From contig CAYLNK010000002.1 in NCBI GenBank assembly GCA_964384675.1, forward strand, positions 1,516 through 65,515: 64,000 nt of DNA, read 5' to 3'. This document shows, piece by piece, positions 23,611-58,853 of this stretch. The notes under the pieces were generated by a model. That model saw only the letters and a program-made list of their open reading frames with translations, had not been told where the DNA came from and did not search any database. Numbering within the stretch: the stretch's first letter is position 1; every line of letters starts with the position of its first letter. The translations under genes were made by a program, and so were the position numbers. This DNA comes from an uncultured Holophagales bacterium. Its GTDB lineage: Bacteria > Acidobacteriota > Thermoanaerobaculia > UBA5066.

Positions 23611-24387
23611 ATGACTGGGAACCATAGACCGCTCTTCGTGGTCCAGCAGCTCGTCAGACGAGACCTGGAGACGCGATTCGCCGGGAGCGCCGGCGGCCTG
23701 CTCTGGACGATCCTGAACCCCGTCATCCTCTGCCTGCTCTACGCGTTCGTCTTCTCCCGGGTCCTCCAGGTCTCGCCCCCGGAGGGCTTCCGCGGGACGT
23801 ACGCCCTCTTCGTCCTCGCCGGTCTCGTGCCGTGGCTCGGGCTCCAGGAGGCCGCCCTGCGGGGTGCGACCGCGGTGACCGACCAGGCGCACCTCGTCCG
23901 GAAGCTGTCGTTCCCGGCCGTGCTCCTTCCCCTCTCGGCCCTGGCGACGGCGCTTCTCGTGCAGCTCGCGGGCCTCGTCCTGGTGGCCGCGTTCGCGGCG
24001 GTCGACGGGGCCCTGCGCCTCGATCCGCTCCGGCTCGCCGGAGCGCTGGCGCTCCAGGCGGCCGCGCTGTCGGGCCCGATCATCGCTCTCGCCGCGGTCA
24101 ACGTCTTCGTGCGGGATCTCCCCCAGCTCCTCGCGCCTGCCCTCCAGATCCTCTTCTATCTGACTCCGATCCTCTATCCGGCCGAGAGGGTGCCTGCCTC
24201 GGTCTCCCGATTCACGGCCTTGAATCCGTTCGCGGACCTCACCGGCCTCTTCCGGGCCGGCCTCCTCGGGACACCCTCCCCACCCGTTAGCCGGCTGGTC
24301 CTGTGGGCACTCCTGAGCGCTGTGATATGCTTTTTCAGCATCCGCCTTTTCAGGCGATGCAGCCAGCATTTTTCGGACCTTCTGTAG
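23611..24387 (+). CDS. ABC-2 type polysaccharide/polyol-phosphate exporter permease (Wzm/KpsM/TagG-like)
   Basis: 258 aa, six TM segments. The N-terminal RRDLETRFAGSAGGLLWTILNP motif is typical of Wzm/TagG permeases. No adjacent ATPase. Confidence 0.8.
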   Translation: MTGNHRPLFVVQQLVRRDLETRFAGSAGGLLWTILNPVILCLLYAFVFSRVLQVSPPEGFRGTYALFVLAGLVPWLGLQEAALRGATAVTDQAHLVRKLSFPAVLLPLSALATALLVQLAGLVLVAAFAAVDGALRLDPLRLAGALALQAAALSGPIIALAAVNVFVRDLPQLLAPALQILFYLTPILYPAERVPASVSRFTALNPFADLTGLFRAGLLGTPSPPVSRLVLWALLSAVICFFSIRLFRRCSQHFSDLL

Positions 24388-24463
24388 CGCTGACTGACGT
24401 GCCTTCCTTCCTATCTCTGGCGTGGGGCTGCCGCCCCGCGAACCGTGCGCCCAAGGAGTCCTC

Positions 24464-26227
24464 TTGAAGCGTTTCCTCGCCCTGGCCCTGCCTGCCGTCG
24501 TCGCCGTCGCCGGCTGCTCCACGTCGCAGGCTCCCGGCCCGAAGGCGGCCGCGCCGGCCGCCGCCCCGCAATCCTCGCCGACCGCGACACCGACTCCGCT
24601 GCCGGAGTCGCCCGCCCTGGCCGAGGACGTGGCACGCCTCGAGCTGCAGAAGAAGTTCCGGGCCACGGAGGCCGCGGTCACGGGCAAGTCCTCGACGGGA
24701 GACGACCAGGTCACCCCCGCCCCCGTCGTCTTCGTGGATCCGGCCACCGGCAAGAAGATGGAGCGGATCCCGAAGAACCCGGCCCTCTACGTGGTGCGGG
24801 GCCGCCTCTACTTCGCTGGGCTGGCCGCCAGCAAGGGGATCCCGCTCGTCCGGGAGGATGCCGACGCCTACTACGTGGAGGTCAAGGCCGAGAAGCCCGT
24901 GGCTCCGCCAGCCTCACCCACGCCGGCTGCGGAATCCCTCGAGGGGCTCAAGCCGATCGTGGAGGTGCCCGAGGAGGAAGCCGTCGAGATCGTCCCTCCG
25001 ACGTCCGCCATCCAGATCCACCTCGAGGACGCCTCCCACGGCCTTCCCAACGCCGGAATCTGGCGGGACAACTTCGACGTCAAGGACGTGGACGGTGACG
25101 GGCGGCCCGAGATCGTGACCCCGCCCGCCCGCCTCTCGGGTGACGACATCCAGGCTTACAAGCTCAAAGGGAACCAGTGGTCCCGCGTTCCCCTCAAGTT
25201 CGACGATCCCCAGCAGATCGGCTTCGAATACGGGGGCGTCGCGGTCGGGGACATGGACGGCGACGGCCGGAACGACATCATCTTCGGGAAGCACGGGGGC
25301 GGCCCGACGATCGCCTACAACAAGGGAAAGGGGCTCTTCCGGGTGGAGACGAGGGGCCTGCCGAAGCTGATGACCACCCGGGCCCCCGTCGTCGGGGACC
25401 TGGACGGCGATGGCCGGCTCGACGTCTTCGCCGTCTCCGACATGCCGGAGGCCGCCGACATCGCGCTCGCGGAGCGGAACGGGAATGCCTCGGCGCGGCT
25501 CCCCCGGGTCGACGGCTACCTGCCGGGCTTCGACGCACGCGGCTTCCTCTCGCGGGGCGGGAAGTACGAGGAGGTCCACGCAGGCCTCGAAGAGTGCTGC
25601 TTCGGCTACAACATCGGCCTGATGGCGCCGGCCCCGGACGGCGGCAACCCGTTCTACGTCTCGTCCTGCCGCTACATCAACGGGACGGGGATGCTGTACG
25701 AGTTCGATGCCCGAACCTCGAAGTGGCTCTACGTGGGCCGCAACGTCGTCGAGCTCTACGCCAACCACGTCGGCAGCGCGGTCGGACGTTACATGGGGCA
25801 CCCCGCGGCGTTCGTGGCGGTCACGAAGAACACCCCTCCGGGGGCCTCGAAGAACGTGACCGGGGACGGTCTCTCGATCTACTACCGCGACGGGGGCGTC
25901 TGGAAGCGGACGCGCATCATGAAGGTCATCAAGGACCCGAGCGCCTCGCAGGGCCTGGCGGTGGGGGACCTGAACGGGGACGGCCTCGACGACGTGGTGT
26001 ACGCCGACGACGGCCTGCTGCGGGTGCGGGTCTTCTTCCAGACGGCCAAGGGCGGCTTCGAGGAGCTCGCCTCGGACCTCGAGCCGACCTACACGAATCA
26101 CTCGTCGGCCATCCGGCTCGCCGACGTGGACGGAGACAAGCGGCTCGACATCGTCCTGATGACCCACTACCTCACGGGCGACGAATCGCGGGCCGGGGGC
26201 TTCCGGGTGTTCCGGAACCTACGCTAG
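24464..26227 (+). CDS. Lipoprotein with FG-GAP/VCBS-like (integrin-alpha beta-propeller) repeats
   Basis: TTG start 5 nt after a perfect AAGGAG SD. Lipobox LPAVVAVAGCS. Repeated DxDGDG calcium-binding-like motifs (DVDGDGRPEI, DMDGDGRNDI, DLDGDGRLDV, DLNGDGLDDV, DVDGDKRLDI). Confidence 0.7.
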   Translation: MKRFLALALPAVVAVAGCSTSQAPGPKAAAPAAAPQSSPTATPTPLPESPALAEDVARLELQKKFRATEAAVTGKSSTGDDQVTPAPVVFVDPATGKKMERIPKNPALYVVRGRLYFAGLAASKGIPLVREDADAYYVEVKAEKPVAPPASPTPAAESLEGLKPIVEVPEEEAVEIVPPTSAIQIHLEDASHGLPNAGIWRDNFDVKDVDGDGRPEIVTPPARLSGDDIQAYKLKGNQWSRVPLKFDDPQQIGFEYGGVAVGDMDGDGRNDIIFGKHGGGPTIAYNKGKGLFRVETRGLPKLMTTRAPVVGDLDGDGRLDVFAVSDMPEAADIALAERNGNASARLPRVDGYLPGFDARGFLSRGGKYEEVHAGLEECCFGYNIGLMAPAPDGGNPFYVSSCRYINGTGMLYEFDARTSKWLYVGRNVVELYANHVGSAVGRYMGHPAAFVAVTKNTPPGASKNVTGDGLSIYYRDGGVWKRTRIMKVIKDPSASQGLAVGDLNGDGLDDVVYADDGLLRVRVFFQTAKGGFEELASDLEPTYTNHSSAIRLADVDGDKRLDIVLMTHYLTGDESRAGGFRVFRNLR

Positions 26228-26294: not shown

Positions 26295-26523
26295 TCCCCT
26301 TTAAGTCGGATGTGGACCATCACGAGTCTCCGCCTGGATTTGCATTCCCGTGGCGCCGCGCTGCCGCACGCCACTCGATCGAACTGGACGTCGAACATGA
26401 CAGGAACTCTCGGAGCTGCGACTCGAACGATGATGACGGAGGTGATCCAGTATCGCGGGAGGATGGAGTTTGGAGTTTCGCGAATTGAACCCGGTCTCAA
26501 TAACTGAATCGGTAGGAGTAAAG

Positions 26524-31200: not shown

Positions 31201-33284
31201 CGCCCACGCTCGCGGTGGCGCTCACCGACACGCAGACCGGGACGGGGCTCTTCGCGTACCAGGGGAAGTTCCAGGCCGCCAGCGGACAGAGCATCACCTT
31301 CACCGCACGGCTCGGTGAGTCCCTGGCCTCGAACGTGATCTGGGTGTTCGGTGACGGCCAGCAGTCGGCGGCGAACCCGGCCACCTACGTCTACACGAAC
31401 ACGACGGCGTCGGACAAGACGTTCAACGGGTCGATCTCGAACGGTGGCTCCACGATCAATTTCGCCGTGCTGGTCACGAAGGCCGTCAACCAGAACCCGA
31501 CGGGCGCCTACACGTATCGCTACGTCGACACCAGCGCCGTCGACATCGCCAAGGTCGACGCGTCCAAGGCGGTCCGCTTCACGGCCTCCGAGGACGCCGA
31601 CAGCTACGACTGGGACTTCGGGGACAGCAGCCTCCACGGGACCACCAAGAGCGTCGACCACACGTTCCCCGCGACCGGCGGCGCGTACCGGGTCGCGCTC
31701 AAGGAAGTGAAGGCGGGCACGACGTACACCACGGCGAGCCCGGTGACCTTCACGATCCCGGCCCCCCCCGAGCCGCCGCGCTGGATGCTCGTCGGCATGG
31801 CGTCGACGGAGGGGCAGGGCGGCGCGTACTGGAGGTCCGACGTCACGATCTACAACCCGAGCGCCGAGCAGGGGATGGCGCTGCGCCTCGCCTTCCTGGA
31901 CGCCAGCAAGACGGTGAAGCCCGAGGACCTCAAGTGGGCGGTCGTGATCCTGCCTCCGCTCGGGACCAAGACGGTCGTCGACATCCTCGGGAACGGGGCG
32001 CTCCCGGACTGGGGCCTCTTCACGGCGAACCGCTCGGGGGCCCTGCTCATCCAGGGCGACACGCTCCCGACCAACACCGACCCGGTGGTGGTCGGGAAGA
32101 CCTACAACACGGGTACCGTGGAATCGGGGACCTACGGCCTCTCGATCCCGGCGGTGCGCGTCACCGAAGGCGTCAAGCCCTCGAGCGTGGCGGCGGCCAG
32201 CCAGCTGATCGGCCTCCGGCAGACCGACGATTTCTACACGAACCTCGCTGTGGTGAACCTGCGCGCCGACGACGCCGAGGTAGAGGTCCGGTTCTACAAC
32301 GCCGCCGGCGCCCTGGTCGGCCAGCCGGTCACCTACCAGGTCGGGCCGTACGGCATCCAGCAGAAGAACAACATCCTGCGCGACGTCGCGGGGTATCCGG
32401 ACCCGCTCGACTCGTTCCGGGCCGTGCTGACGATCAAGAAGGGGACCGGGGTCACGGCGTTCGCGTCGGTGACCGACGTGAGGTCCAAGGACCCGATCTT
32501 CATCGCCCCCCAGCCGAAGACGAACCCGTCCTACCGTCTGCCGGGCATCGTCCGCGCGGCGGGGGCAAACAACTCGCTGTTCCGGAGCGACGTCGTGCTC
32601 TACAACACGTCCTCCGCGGCGCGCACGGCGACGCTCGCGTTCACCTACCGCTCGTCGAAGGACACCTCGGTCACCAACAAGTTCTGGGAAATCCCCCTCG
32701 CCGCCAACCAGGTGGTGGACATCAACGACTTCGTCAAGACGCAGCTGAACCTGGCGGAGTCCGACGACACCTCGTACTACGACTCGTTCGTCGACGTCCA
32801 GCAAAACGACTCGGGGCAGGACCCGATCCTGGTCATGGGCCGCACCTACAACAAGCAGGACAACGGCAGCACCGGGCTGCAGGTGAAGGCCTTCGGGCCC
32901 GACGACACCGCCTCGGCGTCGGGCGTGAAGAAGCGCCTGATCCTGACGGGGCTCAAGTCGTCCGCCGACCAGTCGGTCGGGTTCCGCTCCAACGTCGCCG
33001 TCTTCCTCGGCACACCCGGTCAGTCGGGCTCGGCGCAGCTGAAGATCCGACTCTACGACGGCAACGGCGACTCGCAGGGGACGCTCAACGTGAGCCTGAG
33101 CGCGGCCAAGCCGTTCCTCCAGATCGGCGACCGCGAGCTGTTCGGAGGCGCGCGGTGGGACCTGTCGAACATCACGGTCGTCGTCGACGTCATCTCCGGG
33201 ACGGTGCCCGTCGCGGGATACGCGACCACGCTCGACAACCGGTCCAACGACGCGGTCTTCACCGGCGCGGTCGCCCTCCCGTAG
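28257..33284 (+). CDS. Giant secreted protein 1 (1675 aa): conserved N-terminal domain, PKD domain, two tandem C-terminal ~250-aa modules
   Basis: Signal peptide MKMVSAPLRRCVLLSVAATALLGAPVRDAEA. The N-terminal ~430 aa is about 70-80% identical to the next gene. PKD domain at about nt 30940-31200 (…SPYTYSWNFTDG…GSYSVVCTATDQTG…). Two C-terminal modules share GGAYWRSDVTIYNPS / NNSLFRSDVVLYNTS motifs. Confidence 0.8.
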   Translation: MKMVSAPLRRCVLLSVAATALLGAPVRDAEAQCTVSAPQQFLSNPSPYPRFRTAGYVNSLGLYKDQSGIQRMLSIDNYGYYIFNLADPSSPSYMSQLDIEQTVPRVGDTFSILGSLATAPDGSRALVTTGHTAENGVLLMKGNSSAFVYGGDFKPKEARAVVLDQNGSKWWGYALKDQYLYVADVSSFWTGNPSTKPNSVPSSFYDIGPVVPRSASVANHLIVFAVGSSGIRVADARNPGSGSFPIYSVSATTLGFGAGTSVERVSSTVHPNGTVYIVAEGVINGNQTAGFVMGTLSSDGSSFSRKGNLWMPPSPYSGTGSITSASRPALVSDSSNGEVWAFVWGGSAASRFKLFGLSLKEWEGSGSPSDLTPNASYQSSDSWATIATTEPLKVGSTIYLYVGATNSGQALTVSCTSQNSPPTATISVTNVSDGDTVFVGDSLRVHAAVAPAPSSSQLADWAFDFNYHSNEGSGSTYPILQTPDRTQSAASSQPFSNELVIGPCDPRTGGALASGAGCWASVLGDFASTAEGAVQPLRFAMEARNGFGSSSLRTFTINWKIPKARFTPVAVLNGGQLSDASEGSPRSDGAGFRWYFGETPGSTAVVEDVGCRDKRTCTHPFNNGKGKYKAWIQAAYSNGFVTAGVPASSASLRDVDVQDVVLGVTGASASVTRTGSATSIPLKVTKTASGSINDCPASGSPYAYSICKTTDSACASASSATYLPLTVDGSGNAPISFLFPENGDYYLRVKYTYGTGSCTSPLSESWKPGLESDPTAFKISATDVVTVPSIYLAGLNGSQEYPLCALYCSGGKFSVSPGQTIVVYAYVNGVVDPNPPPGLSWSFGSAGSPSPSSGNGQGVRFSYSTAATTATITMQGYPQTYTFLGKVSGTTPPPPTGLSVTASANPNPGTVNQAVSFTAAASGGTSPYTYSWNFTDGATSNQQNPSHSYSATGSYSVVCTATDQTGAQASRTVFLTVNPVAAPTLAVALTDTQTGTGLFAYQGKFQAASGQSITFTARLGESLASNVIWVFGDGQQSAANPATYVYTNTTASDKTFNGSISNGGSTINFAVLVTKAVNQNPTGAYTYRYVDTSAVDIAKVDASKAVRFTASEDADSYDWDFGDSSLHGTTKSVDHTFPATGGAYRVALKEVKAGTTYTTASPVTFTIPAPPEPPRWMLVGMASTEGQGGAYWRSDVTIYNPSAEQGMALRLAFLDASKTVKPEDLKWAVVILPPLGTKTVVDILGNGALPDWGLFTANRSGALLIQGDTLPTNTDPVVVGKTYNTGTVESGTYGLSIPAVRVTEGVKPSSVAAASQLIGLRQTDDFYTNLAVVNLRADDAEVEVRFYNAAGALVGQPVTYQVGPYGIQQKNNILRDVAGYPDPLDSFRAVLTIKKGTGVTAFASVTDVRSKDPIFIAPQPKTNPSYRLPGIVRAAGANNSLFRSDVVLYNTSSAARTATLAFTYRSSKDTSVTNKFWEIPLAANQVVDINDFVKTQLNLAESDDTSYYDSFVDVQQNDSGQDPILVMGRTYNKQDNGSTGLQVKAFGPDDTASASGVKKRLILTGLKSSADQSVGFRSNVAVFLGTPGQSGSAQLKIRLYDGNGDSQGTLNVSLSAAKPFLQIGDRELFGGARWDLSNITVVVDVISGTVPVAGYATTLDNRSNDAVFTGAVALP

Positions 33285-33350: not shown

Positions 33351-36300
33351 ATGTCCCGCGCCTCGTCCCGACGCCTCCTGATCGCCGCGGTCATCGCGCT
33401 CTCCCTGGGGCCGTGGGACCGCTCCGCGAGCGCGCAGTGCACGGTGGGCCCGCCGTACGAGTTCCTCTCGGCGCCCGGCCCCTACTCGCGCTTCCGGACC
33501 GAGGGCTACGTCAACAGCCTCGGCGTCTACGAGGACGGGAGCGGGGCCCGCCGGCTCCTCTCGGTCGACAACTACGGCTACTACGTCTTCAGCCTCGGGA
33601 CCCCTGGAGCGCCGAGCCACATGGGCCAGCTCGACATCGAGCAGACCGTGCCGCGCCTCGGCGACACGTTCTCGATCCTGGGACCGCTCGCCGTGGCGCC
33701 CGACGGCTCGCGCGCGCTCGTCTCCACCGGGCACACCGCGGCGAACGGCGTCCTCCTGATGAAGGGCGCGAGCAGCTCGTTCTCGTACGGAGGTGACTTC
33801 AAGCCGACCGGGGCCCGCGACGTGGTGCTCGACCAGGTCGGGAGCAAGTGGTGGGGCTACGCCCTGAAGGACGGTTACCTGTACGCGGCCGACGTGACGT
33901 CGTTCTGGAGCGGCGTCCCGGCCACGAAGCCGGGCTCGATCGCTTCGGAATTCCACGGGATCGGGAGCGTGGTGCCACGGAGCGCGTCCGTGGCGAACCA
34001 CCTGATCGTCTTCGCGACCGGCGGCGGCGTGACCGTGGTCGACGCTCGTAACCCGACGTCGTACTTCCCGTACAACGCGCACTCCGCGGCCTCCCTCGGG
34101 TTCCCGGCCGGCACGAGCCTGGAGCGGGTCAGCGCGGTCACGCGTCCCAACGGCACGGTCCTGATCGTGGCGGAGGGAGTCGTGAACGGGAACCAGACCG
34201 CGGGCTTCGTGATGGGGACGCTCTCGGCCGACGGGGGCACGTTCACGCAGCTCGGGAATCGCTGGGTGCCTCCCGCGCCGTTCTCGGGAGACGGCTCGAT
34301 CACGACGGGCTCCAGGCCCGCGCTCGTGTCGGACGGCGACGCGGGCGACGTCTGGATCTTCGTCTGGGGCGGCTCGTCGACGGGCCAGCTCAAGCTGTAT
34401 GGCCTCTCGGCGAACGACTGGGAGACACGTGGAGCTCCGGCCGACCTCACGCCGACGGCGTCGTACCAGGCCTCCTCGAGCTGGGCCTACGTCGCCACCA
34501 CCGAGCCGCTCATGGTCGGCTCGAGCATCTACCTCTACGTCGGCGCGACCAACTCCGCGCAGGCGATCCGCCTGAGCTGCAAGGCCCCGGCTGCCACGCC
34601 GTCGATCTCGCTCGCGTTCGTGAACGGCGGCGTCGAGTATCCGCTCTGCAGCATGGCGGGCTCCTGCGGCGGGGGGCGCTTCTCGGTGGAGACCGGGCAG
34701 GAGCTGGTCGCGTACGCCTACAAGGGCGGCGTGAAGGACCCGACGCCGCCGGCGGGGCTGGCCTGGTCGTTCGGCGGCGCCGGAGCCCCGTCTCCGACCG
34801 GCGGGACCGGCCAGGGCGTTCATTTCACGTTCACGGCGCCCGCCGGGGACGTCGCGGTCACCATGACCGGGTATCCCGAGACGTACACCTTCACGGGGGC
34901 CGTCTCGAATGCCCTCGCCGTCACGGCCACGGCCGCTCCCAATCCAGGGCGGGTGGGGGAGCCGGTGCAGCTGGGCGCCACGGTGACGGGCGGAACGCCT
35001 CCCTACACGTACGTCTGGACGTTCGGCGACGGCACCACGTCGGCGCTGCCGGCGCCCGTCCACGCCTACGCGAACGCGGGCACCTACTCCGTGACGTGCT
35101 CGGTCAGGGACGCCAACGGGCTCACGAAGGCGGCCGTCGTGCCGGTGACCGTCGACGTCGTGGTCCCGTCCGCGCTCGCGGCCGCGGTGACCGACACCGA
35201 GACCGGCGCGCCTCTCGTCGAATCCGGTGGCCTGCTCCTTTCGGCGAGCGGGCAGAGCCTCACCTTCACGGCGCGCGACGGCGAGACCCTGGCCCCGTCG
35301 GTCGTGTGGAGGTTCGGGGACGGCCAGCTCTCGGCTCTCAACCCGGTGACCCACGTCTACGGGAACAACGGCGCCCTGGACCTCGTCTACAACGGCTCGA
35401 TCTCCGCGGGCGGCGTCACGATCCTCTTCTCGATCGCCGTCGCGCCCGCGGACGCGCCTCCGACGGGCGCCTACTCCTACACCTATTCCGACGGCGGCCC
35501 CGTCGTGGCCACGAAGGTCGATCGGGGGCGCGCCGTCCGGTTCACCGCCGCCGAGAAGGCGGACGGCTACGACTGGGACTTCGGGGACGGCAGCCCGCAC
35601 GGCGCGGCGCGAAGCGTCGACCACACCTTCCCGACGACGGGAGGGGACTACACGGTGACCCTCCGCGAGACGAAGGGCGCCCTGACGGCCGTCACGGCGA
35701 GTCCGGTGACGTTCCACGTTCCGCCTCCCCCCGAGCCGCCACGCTGGATGCTGGTCGGCATGGCGTCGACCGAAGGGCAGGGCGGGGCGTACTGGCGTTC
35801 CGACGTCACGATCGGCAACCCGAGCGGCGCGGCGCCGATGACGGTGCGTGTCGCGCACCTCGACGCCGAAAGGAGCGTCCCGGCGTCCGGGCTCGCCTGG
35901 TCGGTGGTCACGCTCGCCCCGCGCGCCACGCGAACCCTCGTCGATGTCCTCGGCGCCGGCGCCCTGCCCGAGTGGGGCCTCGCGCCCGCGAACCGCTCCG
36001 GCGCCCTTCTCGTGGAGGGCGTCTCGTTGCCCTCGGACGTCGAGCCGGTCCTGGTGGGAAGGACGTACAACACCGGGACCTCGGGGTCCGGGACGTTCGG
36101 GCTCTCGATCCCGGCGGTCCGTACCACGGAGGGGATCCGTCCCCAGGGCGCGGCGTGGGCGTCGCAGCTGATCGGCCTCCGCCAGACCGAAGCGCACTAC
36201 ACGAACCTCGCGGTCGTGAACCTCGGGACGGACGACGCCGAGGTCGAGGTGAGGTTCTTCGATCCGACGGGCGCGGTGCTCGGGCAGCCGGTGCTGTACC

Positions 36301-37247
36301 AGGTCGGGCCGTACGGGATCCAGCAGCGGAACAACGTGCTCCGGGACGCCGCGGGCGTCGCGAGCCCGACCGACTCGTTCCGCGCGTCTCTCACCGTCCG
36401 CCGTGGGACCGGCGTCACCGCGTACGCGTCCGTCACCGACGTGGCGTCCAAGGACCCGGTCCTGAGCGTCCCGGCGGCCGGCGTGAGCGCGTCTTATCGC
36501 CTGCCGGGGATCATCCGGGCGGCGGGCGCGAACGGCTCGCTCTTCCGGAGCGACGTGGTCCTGTACAACGCCGCGGCGGCGGCGCGAGTCGCCACGTTCA
36601 CTTACTCGTATCGCACGAGCCGCGACCCGTCGCTCCGCAGCCTCACCTGGCAGGCTCCGCTCGCGGCCGGGCAGGTCCTCGACATCGTCGACTTCGTGAA
36701 GGCCCGGCTTCCCGTGCCCGACGGCGACGAGACGTCGTACACGGACTCCTTCGTCGACGTGGCGCAGGACGACGGGGGGCCGGATCCGATCCTCGTGATG
36801 GGACGCACGTACAACCAGCAGGGCTCGGGCAGCACCGGACTCCAGGTGAAGGCGTTCGGACCGGCGGACACCGCGTCCGCCGCCGGGCCGAAGCGGCGTC
36901 TCTACCTCACCGGACTCCGCTCCTCGACCGACGGGACGACGGGCTTCCGCTCCAACGTCGCGCTCTTCCTGGGGACGCCGGGAGCCCAGGGGACGGCCCA
37001 GGTGGAGGTGAAGGTCCTGGACGGAAGCGGCGACGTGAAGGGCACGACCGGCGTCACCCTCTCGGCGGGCCAGCCGTTCGTCCAGCTCGGGGACCGGACG
37101 CTCTTCGGCGGGGCGGCCTGGGACCTCTCGAGCATCACGGTCGTCCTCGAGGTGGTCGCCGGCCCGGAGCCGGTCGCCGCCTACGCCACGTCCCTGGACA
37201 ACGTGTCGAACGACGCGGTGTTCCTGCCCGCGGCTCCGCTCCCGTAG
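33351..37247 (+). CDS. Giant secreted protein 2 (1298 aa), tandem paralog of protein 1
   Basis: Signal peptide followed by SASAQCTVGPPYEFLSAPGPYSRFRTEGYVNSLGVYEDGSG…, closely paralogous to gene 1. PKD domain at about nt 34920-35160 (PPYTYVWTFGDGTTS…GTYSVTCSVRDANG). The same two C-terminal modules are present. It lacks a ~370-aa segment that gene 1 has. Confidence 0.8.
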   Translation: MSRASSRRLLIAAVIALSLGPWDRSASAQCTVGPPYEFLSAPGPYSRFRTEGYVNSLGVYEDGSGARRLLSVDNYGYYVFSLGTPGAPSHMGQLDIEQTVPRLGDTFSILGPLAVAPDGSRALVSTGHTAANGVLLMKGASSSFSYGGDFKPTGARDVVLDQVGSKWWGYALKDGYLYAADVTSFWSGVPATKPGSIASEFHGIGSVVPRSASVANHLIVFATGGGVTVVDARNPTSYFPYNAHSAASLGFPAGTSLERVSAVTRPNGTVLIVAEGVVNGNQTAGFVMGTLSADGGTFTQLGNRWVPPAPFSGDGSITTGSRPALVSDGDAGDVWIFVWGGSSTGQLKLYGLSANDWETRGAPADLTPTASYQASSSWAYVATTEPLMVGSSIYLYVGATNSAQAIRLSCKAPAATPSISLAFVNGGVEYPLCSMAGSCGGGRFSVETGQELVAYAYKGGVKDPTPPAGLAWSFGGAGAPSPTGGTGQGVHFTFTAPAGDVAVTMTGYPETYTFTGAVSNALAVTATAAPNPGRVGEPVQLGATVTGGTPPYTYVWTFGDGTTSALPAPVHAYANAGTYSVTCSVRDANGLTKAAVVPVTVDVVVPSALAAAVTDTETGAPLVESGGLLLSASGQSLTFTARDGETLAPSVVWRFGDGQLSALNPVTHVYGNNGALDLVYNGSISAGGVTILFSIAVAPADAPPTGAYSYTYSDGGPVVATKVDRGRAVRFTAAEKADGYDWDFGDGSPHGAARSVDHTFPTTGGDYTVTLRETKGALTAVTASPVTFHVPPPPEPPRWMLVGMASTEGQGGAYWRSDVTIGNPSGAAPMTVRVAHLDAERSVPASGLAWSVVTLAPRATRTLVDVLGAGALPEWGLAPANRSGALLVEGVSLPSDVEPVLVGRTYNTGTSGSGTFGLSIPAVRTTEGIRPQGAAWASQLIGLRQTEAHYTNLAVVNLGTDDAEVEVRFFDPTGAVLGQPVLYQVGPYGIQQRNNVLRDAAGVASPTDSFRASLTVRRGTGVTAYASVTDVASKDPVLSVPAAGVSASYRLPGIIRAAGANGSLFRSDVVLYNAAAAARVATFTYSYRTSRDPSLRSLTWQAPLAAGQVLDIVDFVKARLPVPDGDETSYTDSFVDVAQDDGGPDPILVMGRTYNQQGSGSTGLQVKAFGPADTASAAGPKRRLYLTGLRSSTDGTTGFRSNVALFLGTPGAQGTAQVEVKVLDGSGDVKGTTGVTLSAGQPFVQLGDRTLFGGAAWDLSSITVVLEVVAGPEPVAAYATSLDNVSNDAVFLPAAPLP

Positions 37248-37279: not shown

Positions 37280-38488
37280 GTGGCGTTCGAGCCGGCGGTC
37301 CCCGTGGACGACGTGATCGCGTTCACGGATCTCTCCAAGGTGTATCGCGTCTACGCGAGCCCGCGCGAGAGGCTCGTCTCGGCCCTCTTCGGGGGCGGGC
37401 GGGGCACCGAGGTCCACGCGCTGCGCGGCGTGTCGGGTCGCGTCCCGAGGGGGCGTGTCATGGGGCTGGTGGGAGAGAACGGCTCGGGCAAGAGCACCCT
37501 CCTGAAGGTCCTCTCCGGCACGACTCCGCCGACGGCCGGCACGGTGAGCGTATCGGGCCGCGTGGCGTCGATCCTGGAGCTCGGCTCCGCCTTCCACCCC
37601 GAGGTGACGGGACGGAAGAACGTCGTCCTGCAGGCCGCGCTCCTCGGTCTCTCGCGCGCCGAGACGGAGGCCGCGCTTCCGGAGATCGAGCGCTTCGCCG
37701 AGCTGGGGGAGTTCTTCGACCGGCCGGTGAAGACGTACTCGTCCGGGATGGCGATGCGTCTCGCGTTCGCGGCGGCCACCGCCGTCCTGCCCGACGTCGT
37801 GCTCCTCGACGAGGCGCTCGCCGTCGGAGACGGCCGCTTCCAAAAGAAGTGCGTGGACCGGATCCACGATCTGAAGGCCTCGGGCCGGACGATCCTCTTC
37901 TGCAGCCACGCGATGTACTACGTCTCCACGATCTGTGACGAGGCCATCTGGCTGCGACATGGCGAGGTCGCCGCCTCGGGGGACGCGCAGAAGGTCGTCC
38001 TCGAGTACGAACGGTTCCTCGCCGGCAAGGAGCAGCGCGACCAGTCGGCGGCTCCGGCGCACGCCGTCCAGCCCGATTCGCACGGCCGGATCGTCTCGGT
38101 CGACGTCGTCGGCGCCGGCGGGGAGCCGCGCACCGCCTTCGCTCCGGGCGAGCCGTGGGGGGTCGTGCTCGACCTCGCCGTCGACCGCGCGGACCGCCCG
38201 GTCCAGATCCACCTCGCGGTGTCGACGCGTGACAACGTCGTTTGCCTTTCCTTCGACACGCGCCTGGACGGCTTCGGCCCGCTCTTGGGCGCGGAGCGGT
38301 ACCGCGTGCGGATCGGGCTCGACTCGCTCCCGCTCGCGAAAGGGGAATTCATCGTCTACGCGTACCTGGCCGACGAGAAATCCCTGGCGCTCTACGACGC
38401 CCGGAGCGACCGCGCCTTTCACGTGGAGTCCGAGGCGTGGCAGAGCGGCCTCTTCCTGGCGCCGGGGCGCTGGGAGCGCCTGACCTGA
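37280..38488 (+). CDS. ABC transporter ATP-binding protein, Wzt/KpsT/TagH type with C-terminal Wzt_C-like substrate-binding domain
   Basis: Walker A GENGSGKST, signature YSSGMAMRL, Walker B VVLLDEALAVGD, H-loop CSHAM. About 170-aa C-terminal beta-rich extension as in Wzt. Start set to the in-frame GTG at 37280. No strong SD, so the start is uncertain. Confidence 0.75.
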   Translation: MAFEPAVPVDDVIAFTDLSKVYRVYASPRERLVSALFGGGRGTEVHALRGVSGRVPRGRVMGLVGENGSGKSTLLKVLSGTTPPTAGTVSVSGRVASILELGSAFHPEVTGRKNVVLQAALLGLSRAETEAALPEIERFAELGEFFDRPVKTYSSGMAMRLAFAAATAVLPDVVLLDEALAVGDGRFQKKCVDRIHDLKASGRTILFCSHAMYYVSTICDEAIWLRHGEVAASGDAQKVVLEYERFLAGKEQRDQSAAPAHAVQPDSHGRIVSVDVVGAGGEPRTAFAPGEPWGVVLDLAVDRADRPVQIHLAVSTRDNVVCLSFDTRLDGFGPLLGAERYRVRIGLDSLPLAKGEFIVYAYLADEKSLALYDARSDRAFHVESEAWQSGLFLAPGRWERLT

Positions 38489-38597: not shown

Positions 38598-39593
38598 ATG
38601 AACGACGAACATCGCTCTCCGGCCAACCCTCCCCCGGCGCACGTGTCGGTCCGCTCGCTCTTCCGTGGGGCGGCGGGCGAGACGTTCGACGAGCGGCTGA
38701 GGCTCATGGCGTCGTCCGACCCGGCCGACTGGGACGGCGTGGCGTTCCCCACCGAGGTGGCGATCGAGCTGGCCGCGCTCTGCAACCTGGCCTGTGTCAT
38801 GTGCCCGGTCCCGACGACGAAGCGGCCGCCGGAGCTGATGAAGGAGAAGCTCTTCCTCGAGACGGTGGACCAGCTCGCCACCGAGAAGGGCTACGTCCTC
38901 CTGCCTCAGGGCTTCGGCGAGTCGATGCTCCACCCGAAGTGGGCGGGCCTCATCGCGGCCGCGCGGGAGCGCGGGATCGGCCCGATCATCATGCTGACGA
39001 ACGGCATGCTCCTCAACGAGAAGAACGTGTCGCGAGTCCTGGAGCTGGACGTCGACGCGCTCGTCGTCTCGATCGACGGCACGACCGCCGCGACGTACGC
39101 GTCGGTGCGCGTCGGCGGAGACCTCGACGTCGTCGAGCGGAACGTCGAGCTCTTCCTGGCGCGGCGTGGCGCCAGGTCCTCCCCGAAGCTGGTGGTGCGC
39201 ATCATCCGGATGCAGGACACGGCGAACGAGATCGACGCCTTCTTCGAGCGGTGGACGCCGCGCCTTCAGGGTGGCGACGAGATCCGGATCAACGAGTACA
39301 ACAACTGGTCGGGGCGCGTCGAGGACAGGGCGGCGGCCGGCGCCGCCGCCCCCGACGTCGCGCACCGCGCGCCGTGCCGCATGCTCTGGTCGAACCTCTC
39401 CGTCCACGCCGACGGCAAGGTGTCGGCGTGCTGCCACGACAGCGAGGACGAGCTCGTCGTCGGCGACCTCGCGGCGGGCGACACGCTCCAGTCGATCTGG
39501 CGCGGAGAGAAGCTGAGGGCCCTCCGGACGATCCACCGCGAGGGCCGCACCGCCGAGCTGCCGATCTGCCGCGACTGCCGCAACTGGACCTGA
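38598..39593 (+). CDS. Radical SAM / SPASM-domain protein (putative peptide- or protein-modifying maturase, anSME-like)
   Basis: CNLACVMC (Cx3Cx2C) radical-SAM cluster motif. C-terminal Cys cluster (CRMLW…SACCHDS…ICRDCRNW) is typical of the SPASM/twitch auxiliary Fe-S domain. Confidence 0.8.
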   Translation: MNDEHRSPANPPPAHVSVRSLFRGAAGETFDERLRLMASSDPADWDGVAFPTEVAIELAALCNLACVMCPVPTTKRPPELMKEKLFLETVDQLATEKGYVLLPQGFGESMLHPKWAGLIAAARERGIGPIIMLTNGMLLNEKNVSRVLELDVDALVVSIDGTTAATYASVRVGGDLDVVERNVELFLARRGARSSPKLVVRIIRMQDTANEIDAFFERWTPRLQGGDEIRINEYNNWSGRVEDRAAAGAAAPDVAHRAPCRMLWSNLSVHADGKVSACCHDSEDELVVGDLAAGDTLQSIWRGEKLRALRTIHREGRTAELPICRDCRNWT

Positions 39594-40720
39594 GCGGGCC
39601 GGCCATCCTTCGCCGAGTCGTCGACCGATTCCGTGGGCTCCTGGGCGCGGGAGCCAGCCGCGACGTCGCCCCGGCGGAGCCGGCTCCGTCCGGCCCGGCG
39701 GGGCCGAGCGTCCTCTACATCCTCCCCGCCACGACGATCTACGGCGGGCACCGGGTTGTCTTCGAGCACGCGAACCTCCTCGTCGCCCGAGGCTACGACG
39801 TCACCGTGGTGAGCCCCGGGCCCGCGCAGCAGTGGCATCCCCTGGTGGCGCGCTATCTCACCGTCGACCTCGACGACCCCGCCTCGATGCCGAAGGCCGA
39901 CATCGTGATCGGCACGTCGTGGACGACGATCCGCGCGGCGGTGGCGACGGGGGCGCCCACGATCTTCCACTTCTGCCAGGGGTTCGAGGGGGTCCATCGC
40001 GAGTACGCGCCGATCCTGCCCAAGATCGACGAGGCGTACGCCGTGCCGATCCCGAAGCTCCTCATCTCGGCGCACCTCGAGCCCGTGCTGCGCGAACGGT
40101 ACGGCTCGCGGTGCTACCTGATCGGGCAGTCGATCGACACCACGATCTTCACGCCCGGACCCTTCCGTGAGGACGCCAGGCCGCTCCGGGTGGGTGTGGT
40201 CGGGCCGTACGGGATCCGCCCCAAGGGGATCGACGAGCTGCTCCGGGGGCTGCGCCTCACGAGGGAGGCCGGGCACGAGATCGAGGTGCACCACGCGTCG
40301 CCCGCGTCCCTGGACGAGGGAGAGGCTGCGCTCGGTGTCACCGACCGCTACTACGAACGCCTTTCGACCGCCGAGATGGCGGAGTTCTACCGGGGCCTCG
40401 ACGTCTACATCCATCCGTCGTGGGACGAGGAGGGCTTCCCGCTGCCGCCGCTCGAAGCCATGGCGAGCGGCGTGGCGGTCGCCCTCACCGACATCCGCTC
40501 GTTCAGGCCGATCCCCGAGGACGCCGCCCTGCGCTTCCGTTGGGGAAGCCCCGAGGCGATCCCGCCGCTCTTCTCCCGCTTCGCCGACCCGGCCACGCGC
40601 CGGCGTCTGCGGGAGGCCGGTCTCCGCCTGATCGCGGACTACCGTCACGATGCGGTGATGGACAAGGTCGAGGAGGCGTTCGCGGCCGAGGGGGCCGGGC
40701 GCCGGCGGGGCCCAGGCTAG
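39590..40720 (+). CDS. Glycosyltransferase family 4 (GT-B fold)
   Basis: Conserved GT4 core through to the EX7E region (HPSWDEEGFPLPPLEAMASGVAV). The N-terminus VLYILPATTIYGGHRVV is typical. Between the rSAM stop and this N-terminus the frame has no ATG/GTG/TTG, only a CTG overlapping the rSAM stop, so the start is unresolved. Confidence 0.65.
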   Translation: MSGPAILRRVVDRFRGLLGAGASRDVAPAEPAPSGPAGPSVLYILPATTIYGGHRVVFEHANLLVARGYDVTVVSPGPAQQWHPLVARYLTVDLDDPASMPKADIVIGTSWTTIRAAVATGAPTIFHFCQGFEGVHREYAPILPKIDEAYAVPIPKLLISAHLEPVLRERYGSRCYLIGQSIDTTIFTPGPFREDARPLRVGVVGPYGIRPKGIDELLRGLRLTREAGHEIEVHHASPASLDEGEAALGVTDRYYERLSTAEMAEFYRGLDVYIHPSWDEEGFPLPPLEAMASGVAVALTDIRSFRPIPEDAALRFRWGSPEAIPPLFSRFADPATRRRLREAGLRLIADYRHDAVMDKVEEAFAAEGAGRRRGPG

Positions 40721-42262
40721 GTGCCGGCGCCACCCCGGAATCGGTTCGAGCGGTTCCACGCCCAGGCGCTCGCGCCCGCCGTCCTGCTGCTGGCGGCGCT
40801 CGCCTCCCTCTTCGTTCTTCGGGGTCACGGGTCGAGCTTCGGCCCCGGGAACCAGGGCTTCCTCTCGTCGCACGGGATGACGCTCGCGGCGAACCTCTCG
40901 CCGCGGCACGGCTTCCTGATGTTCAACCGGATGTCGCTCGGGAAGGACGGGGCCGTCTCGTACGATGCCTACAACAGCTTTCCGCCGGGCGCGTTCGCCC
41001 TGATCAAGCTCGTGACTCTCCCGGTGGGAGAGCTGGGCGTCCAGATCTCCGTGGCGCGCCGCCTGATGATCGCGTTCTTCGCGGGCGCGGCGTGGCTGGC
41101 CTACCTCTCGATCCTGCGGCTCACCCGGAGCCGGTGGGTCGCCGCGACGGCGACGCTCCTGGCGTTCTCCTCGTACTACGCCCTCTACTACGGTGACCTG
41201 ATCTTCAACGACGTGCCGGCCCTGTTCGGTCTCCTTCTCACGTTTCACGGCATGGTGCTCTTCGTCGAGGAGGGTCGTTTCCCGCAGCTCCTCGCCAAGG
41301 CCCTCGGCTCGCTCTTCCTGGGGTGGCAGGTCTACGCCCTGCTCCTCCCGTTCACGTTCCTCGGCTGCGTGCGGGTGTGGATCGACTCGCGGTCGCTGCG
41401 GGCCGCCGTGCGGAGCCGCTTCTTCGGGCTGGGCCTCGCCGCGCTCCTCGGTGGGGTCGCGATCCTCGCCGGGAACCTCCTCAACGAGCGACTGGCGATC
41501 GGCGGACGGCTCGACGACCTGCCGACGTTCCGCCACATGGTGGGGCGCCTCGGTCTCGCGCCCGCCGAGGTGTACGTCCCGTACGCCCACCAGCTCGCCT
41601 TCGGGCCCTTCGTGAAGGACCAGCTCGTGCGGATCGGGCGGATGTCGGTCCCGCACGTCCTCGCCCGGCAGGGACTTCCGTCGGCCACGATCCCCCTGCT
41701 CGGAGGAGCGGCACTTCTCCTGGCCCTGGTGGGCGGGGCTCTGATCCGCCGGGGGGCCCTCGTCGCGAGCCTCGTCCTGTCGGGCCTCTGCTGGGCGATC
41801 CCGATGCGCCACTTCGTGGCCTTCCACGACTTTCAGAGTCTCTTCTGGATCGGCGTTCCCCTGGTCTTCTTCTCGGGGCTCGCCCTTGCCGCCGAGCGGG
41901 CCGGCCGTGGCCCGAGCGTCGGCGTGGCGGCGGCCGCGTTCCTCCTCTTCACCTGCTCCGCCCTCGGCGTCGACCGAATCAAGGACGCCTCCTCCGGGCC
42001 GAACGAGGTCCTGGCCGATTTCCAGAGGATCCGCGACGTGGTCGGAGCCGGCCGTCGGGTCCACGTGGAAGGAGACCTGTATGCCATCGGCGGGGCGTAC
42101 CACGCCGCCGAGTTCTATCTCTCGGGCTGCCATATCCAGCCGACCCCGGAGGAGGCCGACTTCGTCGTCTCTGGCCGCGCGCGGAATCCCGGGGCTCTCA
42201 CGCCCGGCAACGCCGGCGTCTTCCTGTACAGGAGCGAGAAGTCCGCACCCGACCTGAGGTGA
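40721..42262 (+). CDS. Polytopic membrane protein, possible GT-C-type glycosyltransferase / glycan polymerase-ligase-like
   Basis: 513 aa with about 11 TM segments and loops between them. GTG start abuts the GT4 stop (TAGGTG). Family assignment is tentative. Confidence 0.45.
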   Translation: MPAPPRNRFERFHAQALAPAVLLLAALASLFVLRGHGSSFGPGNQGFLSSHGMTLAANLSPRHGFLMFNRMSLGKDGAVSYDAYNSFPPGAFALIKLVTLPVGELGVQISVARRLMIAFFAGAAWLAYLSILRLTRSRWVAATATLLAFSSYYALYYGDLIFNDVPALFGLLLTFHGMVLFVEEGRFPQLLAKALGSLFLGWQVYALLLPFTFLGCVRVWIDSRSLRAAVRSRFFGLGLAALLGGVAILAGNLLNERLAIGGRLDDLPTFRHMVGRLGLAPAEVYVPYAHQLAFGPFVKDQLVRIGRMSVPHVLARQGLPSATIPLLGGAALLLALVGGALIRRGALVASLVLSGLCWAIPMRHFVAFHDFQSLFWIGVPLVFFSGLALAAERAGRGPSVGVAAAAFLLFTCSALGVDRIKDASSGPNEVLADFQRIRDVVGAGRRVHVEGDLYAIGGAYHAAEFYLSGCHIQPTPEEADFVVSGRARNPGALTPGNAGVFLYRSEKSAPDLR

Positions 42263-43353: not shown

Positions 43354-46300
43354 TTGCTGACCGAATCCCGTCCGCGCGTCGCCCCGGTGGCCCTGCTGCT
43401 CTTCGGCTCCGGGCTCTGCTCCCTCGTCTATCAGATCGTCTGGCTGCGCGAGCTCCGGAACGTCTTCGGGTCCTCGACGCCGGCCACCGCGGCCGTCCTC
43501 GGGATCTTCATGGGCGGGCTGGGGCTCGGGGGGCTGCTGCTGGGGCGGCGGGCGGACCGGCACCGGAATCCGCTGCTCCTCTACGCGAGGCTGGAGGGCG
43601 GGATCGCGGCCGCCGCGCTCCTCACGCTCCCGCTGGTGAGGCTGGTCGAGCTGGCCTACTACGCGAGCGGCGGCTCGCCCGCGCTGGGGATGACCGGTGC
43701 GACGCTCCTGCGCCTCCTCCTCGCCGCGTCGATGCTCGGCGTGCCGACGTTCCTGATGGGCGGGACGCTCCCGGCGGCGGTCCGCGCCGTCCTGCGGCCT
43801 GGCGACGTGAGGCGGCGGGCGGTCGCGACGCTGTACGGCGTCAACACCCTCGGGGCGGTCGCCGGCGTCGTCGGGGCGAACTTCTTCGCGCTCGAGATCC
43901 TCGGCAACCGGCGGACGCTCCTGATCGGTGTGCTGCTGAACCTGCTGGTCGCCATCACCGCCCGCGCCCGCTCGCGGGTCGCCGGCGAGACGGCCGTCGA
44001 TGGGGCCGAGGCGCCCACCCCCTCCGGCTGGCCCGAGACGCCGAGCGGCGGGGCCGCGGGGGTCTTCACCTGGGCGGCGGCGGCGGTGGCCGGCTTCTCG
44101 TTCCTCCTCCTCGAGCTGGTCTGGTACCGGATGCTCGCGCCGATCCTCGGTGGCTCGACGTTCACGTTCGGCCTCATCCTGGCGACGGCGCTCCTCGGCA
44201 TCGGACTCGGCGGGCTTCTCTACGCGCTCTCCGCCGGCGACCAGCCGGCGTCCCTGCCTCTGTTCGCCGCGACCTGCGGGCTCGAGGCCCTCGCCATCGT
44301 GGTCCCGTTCGCCCTCGGGGACCGCCTGGCCGTGCTGGCGGCGCTGCTGCGCCCCCTGGAGACGCTCGGTTTCACGGGCAACCTGATCGGCTGGTCGCTC
44401 GTGTGCGGCGCCGTCGTGCTCCCCGCGGCGATCGTGTCGGGGGTCCAGTTTCCCCTCCTGATCTCGCTCGCGGGCGCGGGGCGGGACAACGCCGGCCACG
44501 ACGTGGGGCGGGTCTACGCGTTCAACACGCTCGGTGCCATCGCGGGCTCTCTGGCTGGCGGATTCGGCCTGATGCCGCTGCTCACGGCTCCCGGCTGCTG
44601 GAAGCTGGCGGCGTGGCTGATGGTCGTCCTGTGCGCCGCGTCGGCGCTCCTGGCGTTCCGTGCGCGCCGTCCCGGCTGGAGCGGACCGGTCTTCGCGGCG
44701 AGCGCGGCGCTCCTCCTCCTCTCGGCGCGTGGCCCGACGGCCGTCTGGCGCCATTCGCCGATCGGGGCGGGCCGGATCGACCTGACCCACAAGACCACCA
44801 ACGAGGTGCGCGACTGGATGGCGCACGTGAGTAGCGGCCCCGTCTGGGAGACCGAGGGCGTGGAGAGCAGCATCGCCCTGGACGGTCTCGACGGCTACGC
44901 GTTCATCGTGAACGGCAAGTCCGACGGCAACGCGGTCGGCGACGCCCCGACGCAGGTGATGGGCGGCCTCCTCGGGGCCCTTCTCCACCCCGGGCCGAAG
45001 CGCAGCCTCGTGGTCGGTCTGGGGACCGGGAGCACCGCGGGCTGGCTGGGGAAGGTGCCGGGCATGGAACGCGTCGACGTGGTCGAGATCGAGCCCGAGA
45101 TCCGGGAGGTCGCGGCGCGGTGCGCGGCGGCCAATCAGGACGTCCTCGGGCAGCCCAACGTCCGGATCGTCTACGGAGACGCGCGCGAGCTGCTCCTCGT
45201 CACGCGGGACCGCTACGACCTCGTCTTCTCGGAGCCGTCCAACCCGTTCCGCGCGGGGATCGCCAGCCTCTTCACCGAAGAGTTCTACGGGGCCGTGGCC
45301 CGGCGGCTGACGGAAGGCGGCGTCTTCGTCCAGTGGGTCCAGGCGTACGAGATCGACGCACGCACGGTCGAGACGATCATGCGGACGCTCCAGGGCGCGT
45401 TCGGCCACGTCCAGGTGTGGCAGACGATCGACAAGGACATGGTCCTCGTCGCGTCCCGGGCCGCGCGACCGGTCGACGCGGACGAGCTCCGGAGGCGGAT
45501 CGCCGGGGAGCCGTATCGCGCGGCGCTGCGCATCGCGTGGCGCGTCGACTCGGTGGAGGGGCTCCTCGCGCACCTGGTCGCGGACGACACGTTCACGCGA
45601 CACGTCGCGACGTACACGGCGAGCCCGGTCAACACGGACGATCGGAACGCGGTGGAGTTCGGGCTGGCCCGGAGCGTGGGCCGCGGACGGGGCGACGTGG
45701 TCGCGGAGATCCGGGCCGCCGCCGCGCGGCTCGGCATGCGGGACCGTTCGTTCCGGGGGGCGTTCGACCCGGAGCTGGTCCGGCGCCATCGGACGACCTC
45801 GCCGTTGATCGCCGGGACGGACGTGCTCGAGGACCCCCGGATCGCGAGCGTGGTCTCCGCTCATCGCGACGGCCGTTACGCGGAGGCGGGCCGGCGCTTT
45901 CGGGAGCTCGGTCTGACGCCGGCCTCGCACGCGGAGACCCTGATCGCCGCCGAGAGCTTCGCCCGCACCGGAGACGACGCCTGCCTCCCCCTTCTCGGGC
46001 CGCTCCGCGAGTACGACGCCGTCGAGGGGCACCTCGTGGCCGCGACCTACCTGGACGCGAAGGGCCGTCCGGACGACGCCACGCGCGCCCTCGCGGCCGG
46101 CTTCCGGCTCTGCCGAAGCTGGCCCTGGGCCGACACGGGCCTCCTGTTCCGCGCCGTCGGGCTCGCCAACGAGCTGGTGACGGGCGCCGCGAGCGCGGCC
46201 GCGGTGGAGGCGCTGGCCGAGGCCGTCGACGAGCCGTTCGTCCTCCACCGGCTCGGGGAGGTGCGCCGGCTCCTCGTCCTGAACGTCGCCCGGCGCCTCG

Positions 46301-58798: not shown

Positions 58799-58853
58799 GG
58801 CGAACCTCACCTCTAAGTGTAGGTGTCTCACGGCGGACGCGCTGTGAGGGGTC

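Follow-up and report, generated by a model that had tools for sequence, protein, structure and literature searches.

The 64,000-nucleotide stretch of Holophagales DNA analyzed here (contig CAYLNK010000002.1, referred to below as the window) encodes, at 38598..39593 on the forward strand, a radical S-adenosylmethionine (SAM) enzyme of 331 amino acids with a C-terminal twitch domain, which we call rSAM1. The assignment comes from the open reading frame (ORF), Pfam matches, an AlphaFold2 (AF2) model and matches in the PDB. We lean toward the view, drawn from sequence comparison and its interpretation, that rSAM1 modifies a glycan or a sugar and works with the adjacent family 4 glycosyltransferase (GT4) in a Wzm/Wzt pathway. 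Its substrate is most likely a carbohydrate and not a peptide, because all lines of context (the neighbors of the gene, the neighbors of its distant relatives and the domain fusions in its family) point to carbohydrate biosynthesis and none to peptides. Judged by sequence and by the structural model, BtrN and the other radical SAM enzymes that modify sugars are the nearest structural relatives of rSAM1, which would work like them.

Cysteine pattern, fold and relatives of rSAM1

The rSAM1 gene and its start codon are real. The reading frame runs from an ATG, which is the first possible start, to a TGA, and close homologs are 55–72% identical and of the same length, which would not be expected of a chance ORF or a misplaced start. 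The window has a GC content of 70.6%, and GC by codon position in the gene (0.67/0.48/0.96) has the pattern typical of true genes in the window. Both parts of the protein match Pfam above the cutoff: Radical_SAM (PF04055) with an expectation value (E) of 5e-14 (53 bits against a cutoff of 29.5) and SPASM (PF13186) with E 2.7e-13 (50 bits against 21.5). An exact copy of the protein is found on nine metagenomic contigs (Joint Genome Institute sample 3300024274 and Logan assemblies). Homologs form 97 clusters, and the close relatives that carry a name come from metagenome-assembled genomes of Thermoanaerobaculia, Holophagales or Acidobacteriota.

Conservation was assessed in an alignment of 55 homologs reaching down to 26% identity (an earlier version held 18 sequences). 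Fourteen columns are invariant, and seven of these are cysteines: C62, C66, C69, C260, C278, C324 and C327. The first three form the CX3CX2C motif for the SAM-cleaving [4Fe-4S] cluster (38781..38804, forward strand, located from the translation). The C-terminal cysteines belong to the twitch domain (39375..39578, forward strand), which is defined by cysteine conservation and by a HMMER alignment with BtrN and has the spacing C260-x17-C278(C279)...C324-x2-C327. C279 is conserved in at least 90% of the homologs, and rSAM1 has eight cysteines in total, all of which are explained by CX3CX2C together with C260/C278/C279/C324/C327. A GGE-like element is also present (G105-F-G107-E108), in which G107 and E108 are invariant. 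The CX3CX2C motif, the PF04055 match and a partial TIM-barrel core in the model place rSAM1 in the radical SAM superfamily.

A twitch domain is a shortened form of the SPASM domain and carries the cysteine ligands of one auxiliary cluster (PMC9012708). SPASM proper was taken as the seven-cysteine motif CX9-15GX4C...CX2CX5CX3C...C, which binds the two clusters AuxI and AuxII. This motif was not found in rSAM1, where the layout C260-x12-G273-x4-C278(C279)...C324-x2-C327 stops after CX2C and is followed by four residues and the stop codon; a second auxiliary cluster has no room because the chain ends there. The four invariant cysteines align with those of the BtrN twitch. On its cysteine pattern, then, the C-terminal domain of rSAM1 is a single-cluster twitch and not a seven-cysteine SPASM domain. 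The enzyme would hold two [4Fe-4S] clusters, one that cleaves SAM and an auxiliary one ligated entirely by cysteine. A preliminary description of this DNA, made from the letters, had reported a Cx3Cx2C radical SAM protein with C-terminal SPASM cysteines. The first part is borne out by C62-x3-C66-x2-C69 and by the Pfam match; of the second, the SPASM-type Fe-S domain stands, whereas its cysteines are the four or five of a twitch and do not make up the seven-cysteine motif. The Pfam PF13186 match alone cannot separate the two kinds of domain here, since rSAM1 matches that family without having the motif.

A family profile of rSAM1 was searched against all PDB sequences. BtrN was the best match (E 2e-26) and was aligned over both core and twitch, with the four family cysteines falling on the auxiliary-cluster cysteines of BtrN. 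SkfB (1e-15), DesII (3e-13), GDGT-MAS (1e-12) and BlsE (2.5e-11) followed, and PqqE (7e-10), MoaA (1e-7) and anSME (2.6e-7) matched more weakly. The AF2 model, built from the 55-sequence alignment, has a mean predicted local distance difference test (pLDDT) score of 95.1 and a predicted template modeling (pTM) score of 0.92. Its core consists of six alternating strands and helices, and the N-terminal ~50 residues form short helices only. When the model was compared with the PDB by Foldseek, the top hit was BtrN, in the structure that holds both SAM and its substrate (4m7t; E 9e-15, target TM score 0.78). The top matches were all radical SAM enzymes, and SuiB, CteB and anSME were among the fold matches. 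The preliminary description had grouped the protein with anSME, PqqE and the peptide maturases. The profile ranks BtrN far ahead of both PqqE and anSME, Foldseek agrees, and that placement is not supported.

No NCBIfam model reaches its cutoff among the best 25 matches of rSAM1. The best is TIGR04321 ("spiro-SPASM protein"; E 4e-27, 94.9 bits against a cutoff of 250). By these comparisons rSAM1 falls outside the BtrN, anSME, PqqE and spiro-SPASM families and every other curated family. Some of the weaker hits raise the question of a lipid or cofactor role, in which rSAM1 would act on a membrane-spanning lipid or a hopanoid side chain or would mature a metallocofactor: the radical SAM core matches GDGT-MAS, and NCBIfam gives weak matches to rSAM_Geo_metal (1.5e-24), a tungsten-cofactor maturase family (1.4e-21) and HpnH (1.5e-5). 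These matches, that to anSME aside, cover only the core common to radical SAM enzymes (residues ~50–219) and lie far below the family cutoffs. No recognizable lipid-synthesis, hopanoid or tungsten/molybdenum family is present among the annotated genes of the window or of related loci, and we regard such a role as quite improbable.

Genomic context of rSAM1 and its relatives

The gene lies between a Wzt-type ABC ATPase with a C-terminal Wzt_C domain (~37280..38488, forward strand; Pfam ABC_tran 2.4e-21 and Wzt_C 6e-8, NCBIfam TagH/Wzt-like) and the GT4 gene (39590..40720, forward strand; Pfam Glyco_trans_1_4 and Glycos_transf_1, with the glycosyltransferase domain starting at ~39707). The start of the ATPase is uncertain (37280, 37304, 37313 or 37340). 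Further upstream, at 23611..24387 on the same strand, is a Wzm-type ABC-2 permease (Pfam ABC2_membrane), the presumed partner of Wzt. With ABC2_membrane, ABC_tran plus Wzt_C and GT4, the window holds the components of an export locus for glycans of the Wzm/Wzt, ABC-transporter-dependent kind. The position of the radical SAM gene between a Wzt-like ATPase and a GT4 gene had been correctly noted in the preliminary description, which also had the stops and starts of neighboring genes overlapping. The stop of Wzt at 38488 is separated from the rSAM1 ATG at 38598 by 109 nucleotides, and rSAM1 and GT4 overlap solely if a CTG at 39590 is the start of the latter (see below).

Conservation of this arrangement was examined in 80 related loci fetched from GTDB species representatives, plus several contigs for close homologs. 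Synteny counts refer to 24 non-redundant loci, whose names place them in Acidobacteriota, Nitrospirota, Desulfobacteraceae, Planctomycetota and other groups, in which the radical SAM protein is at least 39% identical to rSAM1. Window proteins were located in them by tblastn, because gene calls based on third-position GC (GC3) picked antisense ORFs in several high-GC loci. A GT4 gene is present in 17 loci (16 by tblastn and L023 by Pfam) and a Wzt ATPase with Wzt_C, 36–65% identical and within 7 kb of the radical SAM gene, in 12. A second twitch paralog of ~364 amino acids (rSAM2) occurs in 10 and Wzm (30–42% identical) in six (L012, L013, L019–L021 and L023). GT4 often abuts the radical SAM gene directly: the gap is 0 nucleotides in L019–L022, which are of Nitrospirota type, and 3 in L004, and the genes overlap by 4 in L023. 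Other products of the orthologous clusters are GT2 enzymes (one of them, 1,655 amino acids long, combines three GT2 domains with a PIG-L domain), SAM methyltransferases, a YfhO membrane protein and a YdjC-like protein, whose Pfam family we take to be sugar deacetylases. In one Nitrospirota locus (L020, 10934–12916) the GT4 that abuts the radical SAM gene is fused to a SAM methyltransferase in a protein of 660 amino acids. A terminal methyl group ends the chains in some Wzm/Wzt pathways, and for this reason the fusion looks like a chain-capping enzyme.

Secreted proteins would be a different set of candidate partners. Immediately downstream of wzm the window encodes an FG-GAP repeat protein (24422..26227, forward strand; Pfam FG-GAP_3), followed by a Cys-rich secreted protein of 535 amino acids with 12 cysteines (26470–28077) and two giant paralogous PKD proteins of 1675 and 1298 amino acids (28257–33284 and 33351–37247), both of which begin with a signal peptide followed by "AQCTV". 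The last three genes separate Wzm and FG-GAP (23611–26227) from Wzt. The Cys-rich protein has no Pfam or NCBIfam match and no relatives in the fetched loci, and its gene has an unusually low first-codon-position GC of 0.55. The possibility that rSAM1 is a protein or peptide maturase, installing a crosslink, a formylglycine or an epimerized residue in the Cys-rich, PKD or FG-GAP protein, draws on these secreted repeat proteins within 15 kb of the gene and on the recurrence of FG-GAP, CARDB and Big_7 surface proteins in Nitrospirota and Desulfobacteraceae loci. It also draws on the company that rSAM1 keeps: the SPASM/twitch superfamily is rich in peptide-modifying enzymes, the twitch enzyme SkfB is the second-best PDB match, and SuiB, CteB and anSME are among the fold matches.

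The synteny counts point the other way. The preliminary description had proposed the Cys-rich protein and the PKD giants as substrates encoded in cis; neither has a counterpart in any of the 24 loci, against the counts given above for GT4, Wzt and Wzm. The FG-GAP protein, which is the sole secreted- or surface-type protein of the window locus that recurs near homologs, passes the coverage filter in only one locus, with weaker partial matches in two more (its homologs are at 17731–18966 in L020, 14353–15579 in L021 and 8132–9391 in L023, named Nitrospirota, Thermodesulfovibrionia and Desulfobacteraceae). Nor is a recognition element (RRE) of the kind found with ribosomally made peptides that are modified after translation (RiPPs) apparent: Pfam finds none, the N-terminal ~50 residues are the short helices described above, and no small ORF recurring beside the gene was seen in the gene maps, which were inspected without a systematic search. 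RREs are not universal among RiPP enzymes, and their absence here lowers the possibility of a RiPP maturase without excluding it. Since the four invariant cysteines align with those of BtrN, the auxiliary cluster would have no open iron site for a substrate cysteine of the kind used by thioether-forming enzymes. Finally, distant members of the family are found among clustered sugar-biosynthesis genes, and some carry a fused sugar-activating or acylating domain. Taken with the evidence in its favor, a maturase acting on these proteins seems to us improbable.

One lineage has a distinct context. In L008 (5642–11005), and likewise in L009, an apparent operon encodes a sulfatase-family protein, a B12-binding radical SAM protein, an NAD epimerase/dehydratase and a twitch radical SAM protein 42% identical to rSAM1. 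This arrangement differs from the GT4/Wzt context.

It also bears on the possibility that rSAM1 is a housekeeping anSME, or a similar maturase, serving a protein encoded elsewhere, for here a gene of the PF00884 sulfatase family stands two genes upstream of a homolog, and anSME is among the weaker PDB matches. The sulfatase neighbor is confined to that lineage. The anSME match (E 2.6e-7) is far poorer than that of BtrN (E 2e-26), and the full SPASM domain of anSME binds two auxiliary clusters, an arrangement that the cysteine set of rSAM1 excludes. There is no anSME model among the best 25 NCBIfam matches, none of which reaches its cutoff. Orthology to anSME together with a cognate sulfatase, which the preliminary description had itself named as the finding that would overturn it, was not seen, and no sulfatase is present among the annotated genes of the window. 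We give this explanation only a very slight chance.

Beyond the close homologs, searching 1.84 billion representative proteins with a profile returned 2,061 clusters (at 50% identity) with E ≤1e-30, mostly of 300–350 amino acids. The family is thus large, unnamed and uncharacterized. For distant relatives (29–37% identity), 75 flanking ORFs were examined in one Pfam scan. The commonest families were B12-binding radical SAM proteins (18), NAD-dependent epimerases/dehydratases (5) and NeuB (5), followed by DAHP_synth_1 (4), the Pfam family that includes Kdo-8-phosphate synthases, WbqC (3), flippase-type Polysacc_synt (3), and then GT2, methyltransferases and PMT_2. Fusions have the same flavor. 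One member of the wider family (P0204) has an N-terminal cytidylyltransferase-like domain, CTP_transf_3, and another (P0221) an N-terminal hexapeptide acyltransferase domain; there are also members of 505–508 amino acids with the spiro-SPASM layout, one of them with a cytidylyltransferase-like N terminus.

The rSAM1–GT4 junction and other genes of the window

The start of the window GT4 is unusual. A codon listing of its frame from 39428 to 39806 contains no ATG, GTG or TTG, and the only start-like codons in the start region are CTG at 39590, ATC at 39605 and CTG at 39641. The first of these overlaps the TGA of rSAM1 as CTGA. The GC3 signal passes to the GT4 frame at ~39560–39600, right at the rSAM1 stop, and full-length GT4 homologs align with the window protein from ~39704–39710 onward. 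A start at 39806, as in the public gene call (304 amino acids), was rejected, since ~33 residues would be lost from the N terminus, and these align with the full-length GT4s of L090 and L019. A programmed frameshift from rSAM1 into GT4 was also rejected; no slippery site was seen near the stop, and a +1 shift would not lead into the GT frame. Three independent contigs agree exactly in the sequence of the junction, which is therefore not an assembly error.

The closest relative, L090 (rSAM1 72% identical), has the gene order rSAM1–rSAM2–GT4. Its rSAM2 is 364 amino acids long (2768–3862 of L090), and its GT4 is 69% identical to that of the window from L090 GT4 residue 3. No rSAM2 was found in the window. 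In its place, between rSAM1 and the GT4 domain, there is a spacer of ~105 nucleotides (39594..39700, forward strand) with weak DNA similarity to both of the L090 rSAM2 junctions; where L090 has the ATGA at which its GT4 starts, the window has GCGGGG. The simplest reading of these sequences is that the spacer may be the scar of a deleted rSAM2 and that the canonical GT4 start was lost with the deletion. The window GT4 may be translated from the CTG at 39590 by termination–reinitiation.

Directly after GT4, at 40721..42262 on the forward strand, is a polytopic membrane protein of 513 amino acids. It has a Pfam PMT match below the cutoff (E 4e-4), no PDB or NCBIfam match, and a sequence that is not conserved near rSAM1 homologs (0/24 loci). 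On this weak evidence it is possibly a glycosyltransferase of the GT-C fold. YfhO and PMT_2 membrane proteins, which we take to be GT-C-type families, do occur in loci related to that of rSAM1.

Several other genes can be noted. Downstream of the glycan genes come a cNMP-binding protein and then, at 43354–46509, a 1051-amino acid fused MFS/spermidine-synthase-like membrane protein (NCBIfam NF037959); neither has a counterpart in the 24 loci. On the reverse strand, at 53063–58831, is a giant surface-type protein of 1922 amino acids with NHL/teneurin-NHL repeats and DUF11. An Rfam scan of the window gave no match.

Proposed chemistry and comparison with known systems

In BtrN the auxiliary cluster has four cysteine ligands and is thought to accept an electron in the two-electron oxidation of an aminocyclitol alcohol (PMC9012708). 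In the scheme that we infer for rSAM1, with its carbohydrate substrate, GT4 partnership and oxidation chemistry, the enzyme would serve a surface-glycan pathway of the ABC-transporter-dependent (Wzm/Wzt) type, acting on its cytoplasmic side. The substrate would be an activated sugar or a sugar already placed by GT4 on a lipid-linked glycan. Reductive cleavage of SAM would give a 5′-deoxyadenosyl radical that takes a hydrogen atom from a hydroxyl-bearing carbon of the sugar; the substrate radical would then give an electron to the auxiliary cluster, yielding a keto-sugar by a two-electron oxidation of the BtrN type. The keto-sugar could be the end product or an intermediate on the way to epimerization, amination or dehydration. 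If rSAM1 does modify a glycan or sugar in partnership with GT4, we see perhaps an even chance that its chemistry is that of a BtrN-type dehydrogenase; epimerization, dehydration and rearrangement could start from the same substrate radical and are indistinguishable from it by sequence.

Several points weigh against a sugar-modifying partner of GT4. Twitch enzymes are not all sugar enzymes, as SkfB acts on a peptide and MoaA on GTP. The similarity to BtrN is remote, with only ~17% identity, and BtrN is a protein of ~250 amino acids with an abridged core, whereas rSAM1 has a six-strand core and a conserved N-terminal extension of 50 residues. No member of the family has a known substrate or product. 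Two close orthologs, in L005 and L007, are solitary: neither GT4 nor Wzt lies within 10 kb of them. Where a GT4 is adjacent, it is just 31–36% identical to that of the window (except in L090, 69%, and L038, 27%), a level at which the neighboring GT4s may not be strict orthologs. The recurrence of FG-GAP surface proteins in some loci may indicate a link to protein after all. The window copy of the pathway may also be reduced or decaying, because its GT4 has no canonical start and rSAM2 is missing.

With these reservations, the sugar-modifying reading can be extended in one direction. Together with the GT4 that it abuts, rSAM1 could be the chain-capping module of a Wzm/Wzt glycan pathway; one relative has the GT4–methyltransferase fusion, and most close relatives also have rSAM2. 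GT4 would add a terminal sugar, and rSAM1 would convert it, by oxidation, epimerization or rearrangement, to an unusual non-reducing-end residue that the co-inherited Wzt_C domain recognizes for export. This proposal is speculative and on balance we think it unlikely. By way of the GT-C-like membrane protein, the capped glycan might in turn be put on surface proteins of the FG-GAP, PKD or CARDB kind. Were chain capping to be true, it would be the first terminator of an ABC-transporter-dependent polysaccharide made by a radical SAM enzyme.

We know of no characterized Wzm/Wzt pathway with a radical SAM enzyme, and the literature that we searched contained no paper that deals with the rSAM1 family or describes a Wzm/Wzt cluster with a radical SAM enzyme. 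Conserved gene order and fusions tie a large unnamed family to the assembly and export of surface glycans, in loci that carry the names of Acidobacteriota, Nitrospirota, Desulfobacteraceae, Planctomycetota and Chloroflexota. If the favored assignment is correct, the organisms that carry these genes use radical chemistry to make a novel sugar of an envelope polysaccharide or glycoprotein, and the radical SAM–GT4 pair offers a compact system of two genes for its discovery. The case of rSAM1 also cautions against equating each Pfam "SPASM" match with a peptide maturase.

Among known systems, the spiro-SPASM family TIGR04321 is similar in that its model positions 229–505 cover the entire radical SAM and twitch part of rSAM1. 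It differs in its 510-amino acid architecture, the N-terminal domain of which (~228 amino acids) rSAM1 lacks. That family is itself uncharacterized, and no paper mentioning "spiro-SPASM" was found in the literature searched. The maturases anSME, PqqE, SuiB and CteB and the twitch sactisynthase SkfB belong to the same superfamily and have a similar overall fold, whereas rSAM1 has no second auxiliary cluster, its conserved neighbors are glycan genes, and neither an RRE nor a precursor peptide nor a sulfatase partner was found for it. The Wzm/Wzt pathways of O-antigens and S-layer glycans share Wzm, Wzt with Wzt_C, GT4, GT2 and methyltransferases with the window or the orthologous loci. The window copy departs from them in having PKD giants between Wzm and Wzt and no polymerizing GT2 or methyltransferase nearby.

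To our knowledge, nearly all known sugar-acting radical SAM enzymes belong to antibiotic pathways; BtrN, DesII, BlsE and SpeY are examples, as are AprD4 and NeoN. DesII, which acts on a thymidine diphosphate (TDP)-sugar, BlsE (named in the PDB as cytosylglucuronate decarboxylase) and SpeY (twitch dehydrogenase) have a SPASM- or twitch-type C terminus and are among the next-best sequence or fold matches in the PDB. They match rSAM1 more weakly than BtrN does (E 1e-7 to 1e-13), and they serve antibiotic pathways and not cell-surface polysaccharide clusters. BtrN, the 2-deoxy-scyllo-inosamine dehydrogenase of the butirosin pathway (PDB 4M7T/4M7S), shares with rSAM1 the radical SAM core, the twitch and the auxiliary cysteine spacing (CX17-18C...CX2C near the C terminus), and its substrate is a non-peptide polyol. 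At ~17% identity and with no 2-deoxystreptamine context, rSAM1 does not qualify as a BtrN ortholog (DOIA dehydrogenase). Aminoglycoside-pathway genes are absent from the annotated neighbors in the window and in related loci, and rSAM1 lies instead in a Wzm/Wzt and GT4 glycan cluster. What is new here is the biosynthetic setting of a twitch radical SAM enzyme; the proposed chemistry is not mechanistically unprecedented.

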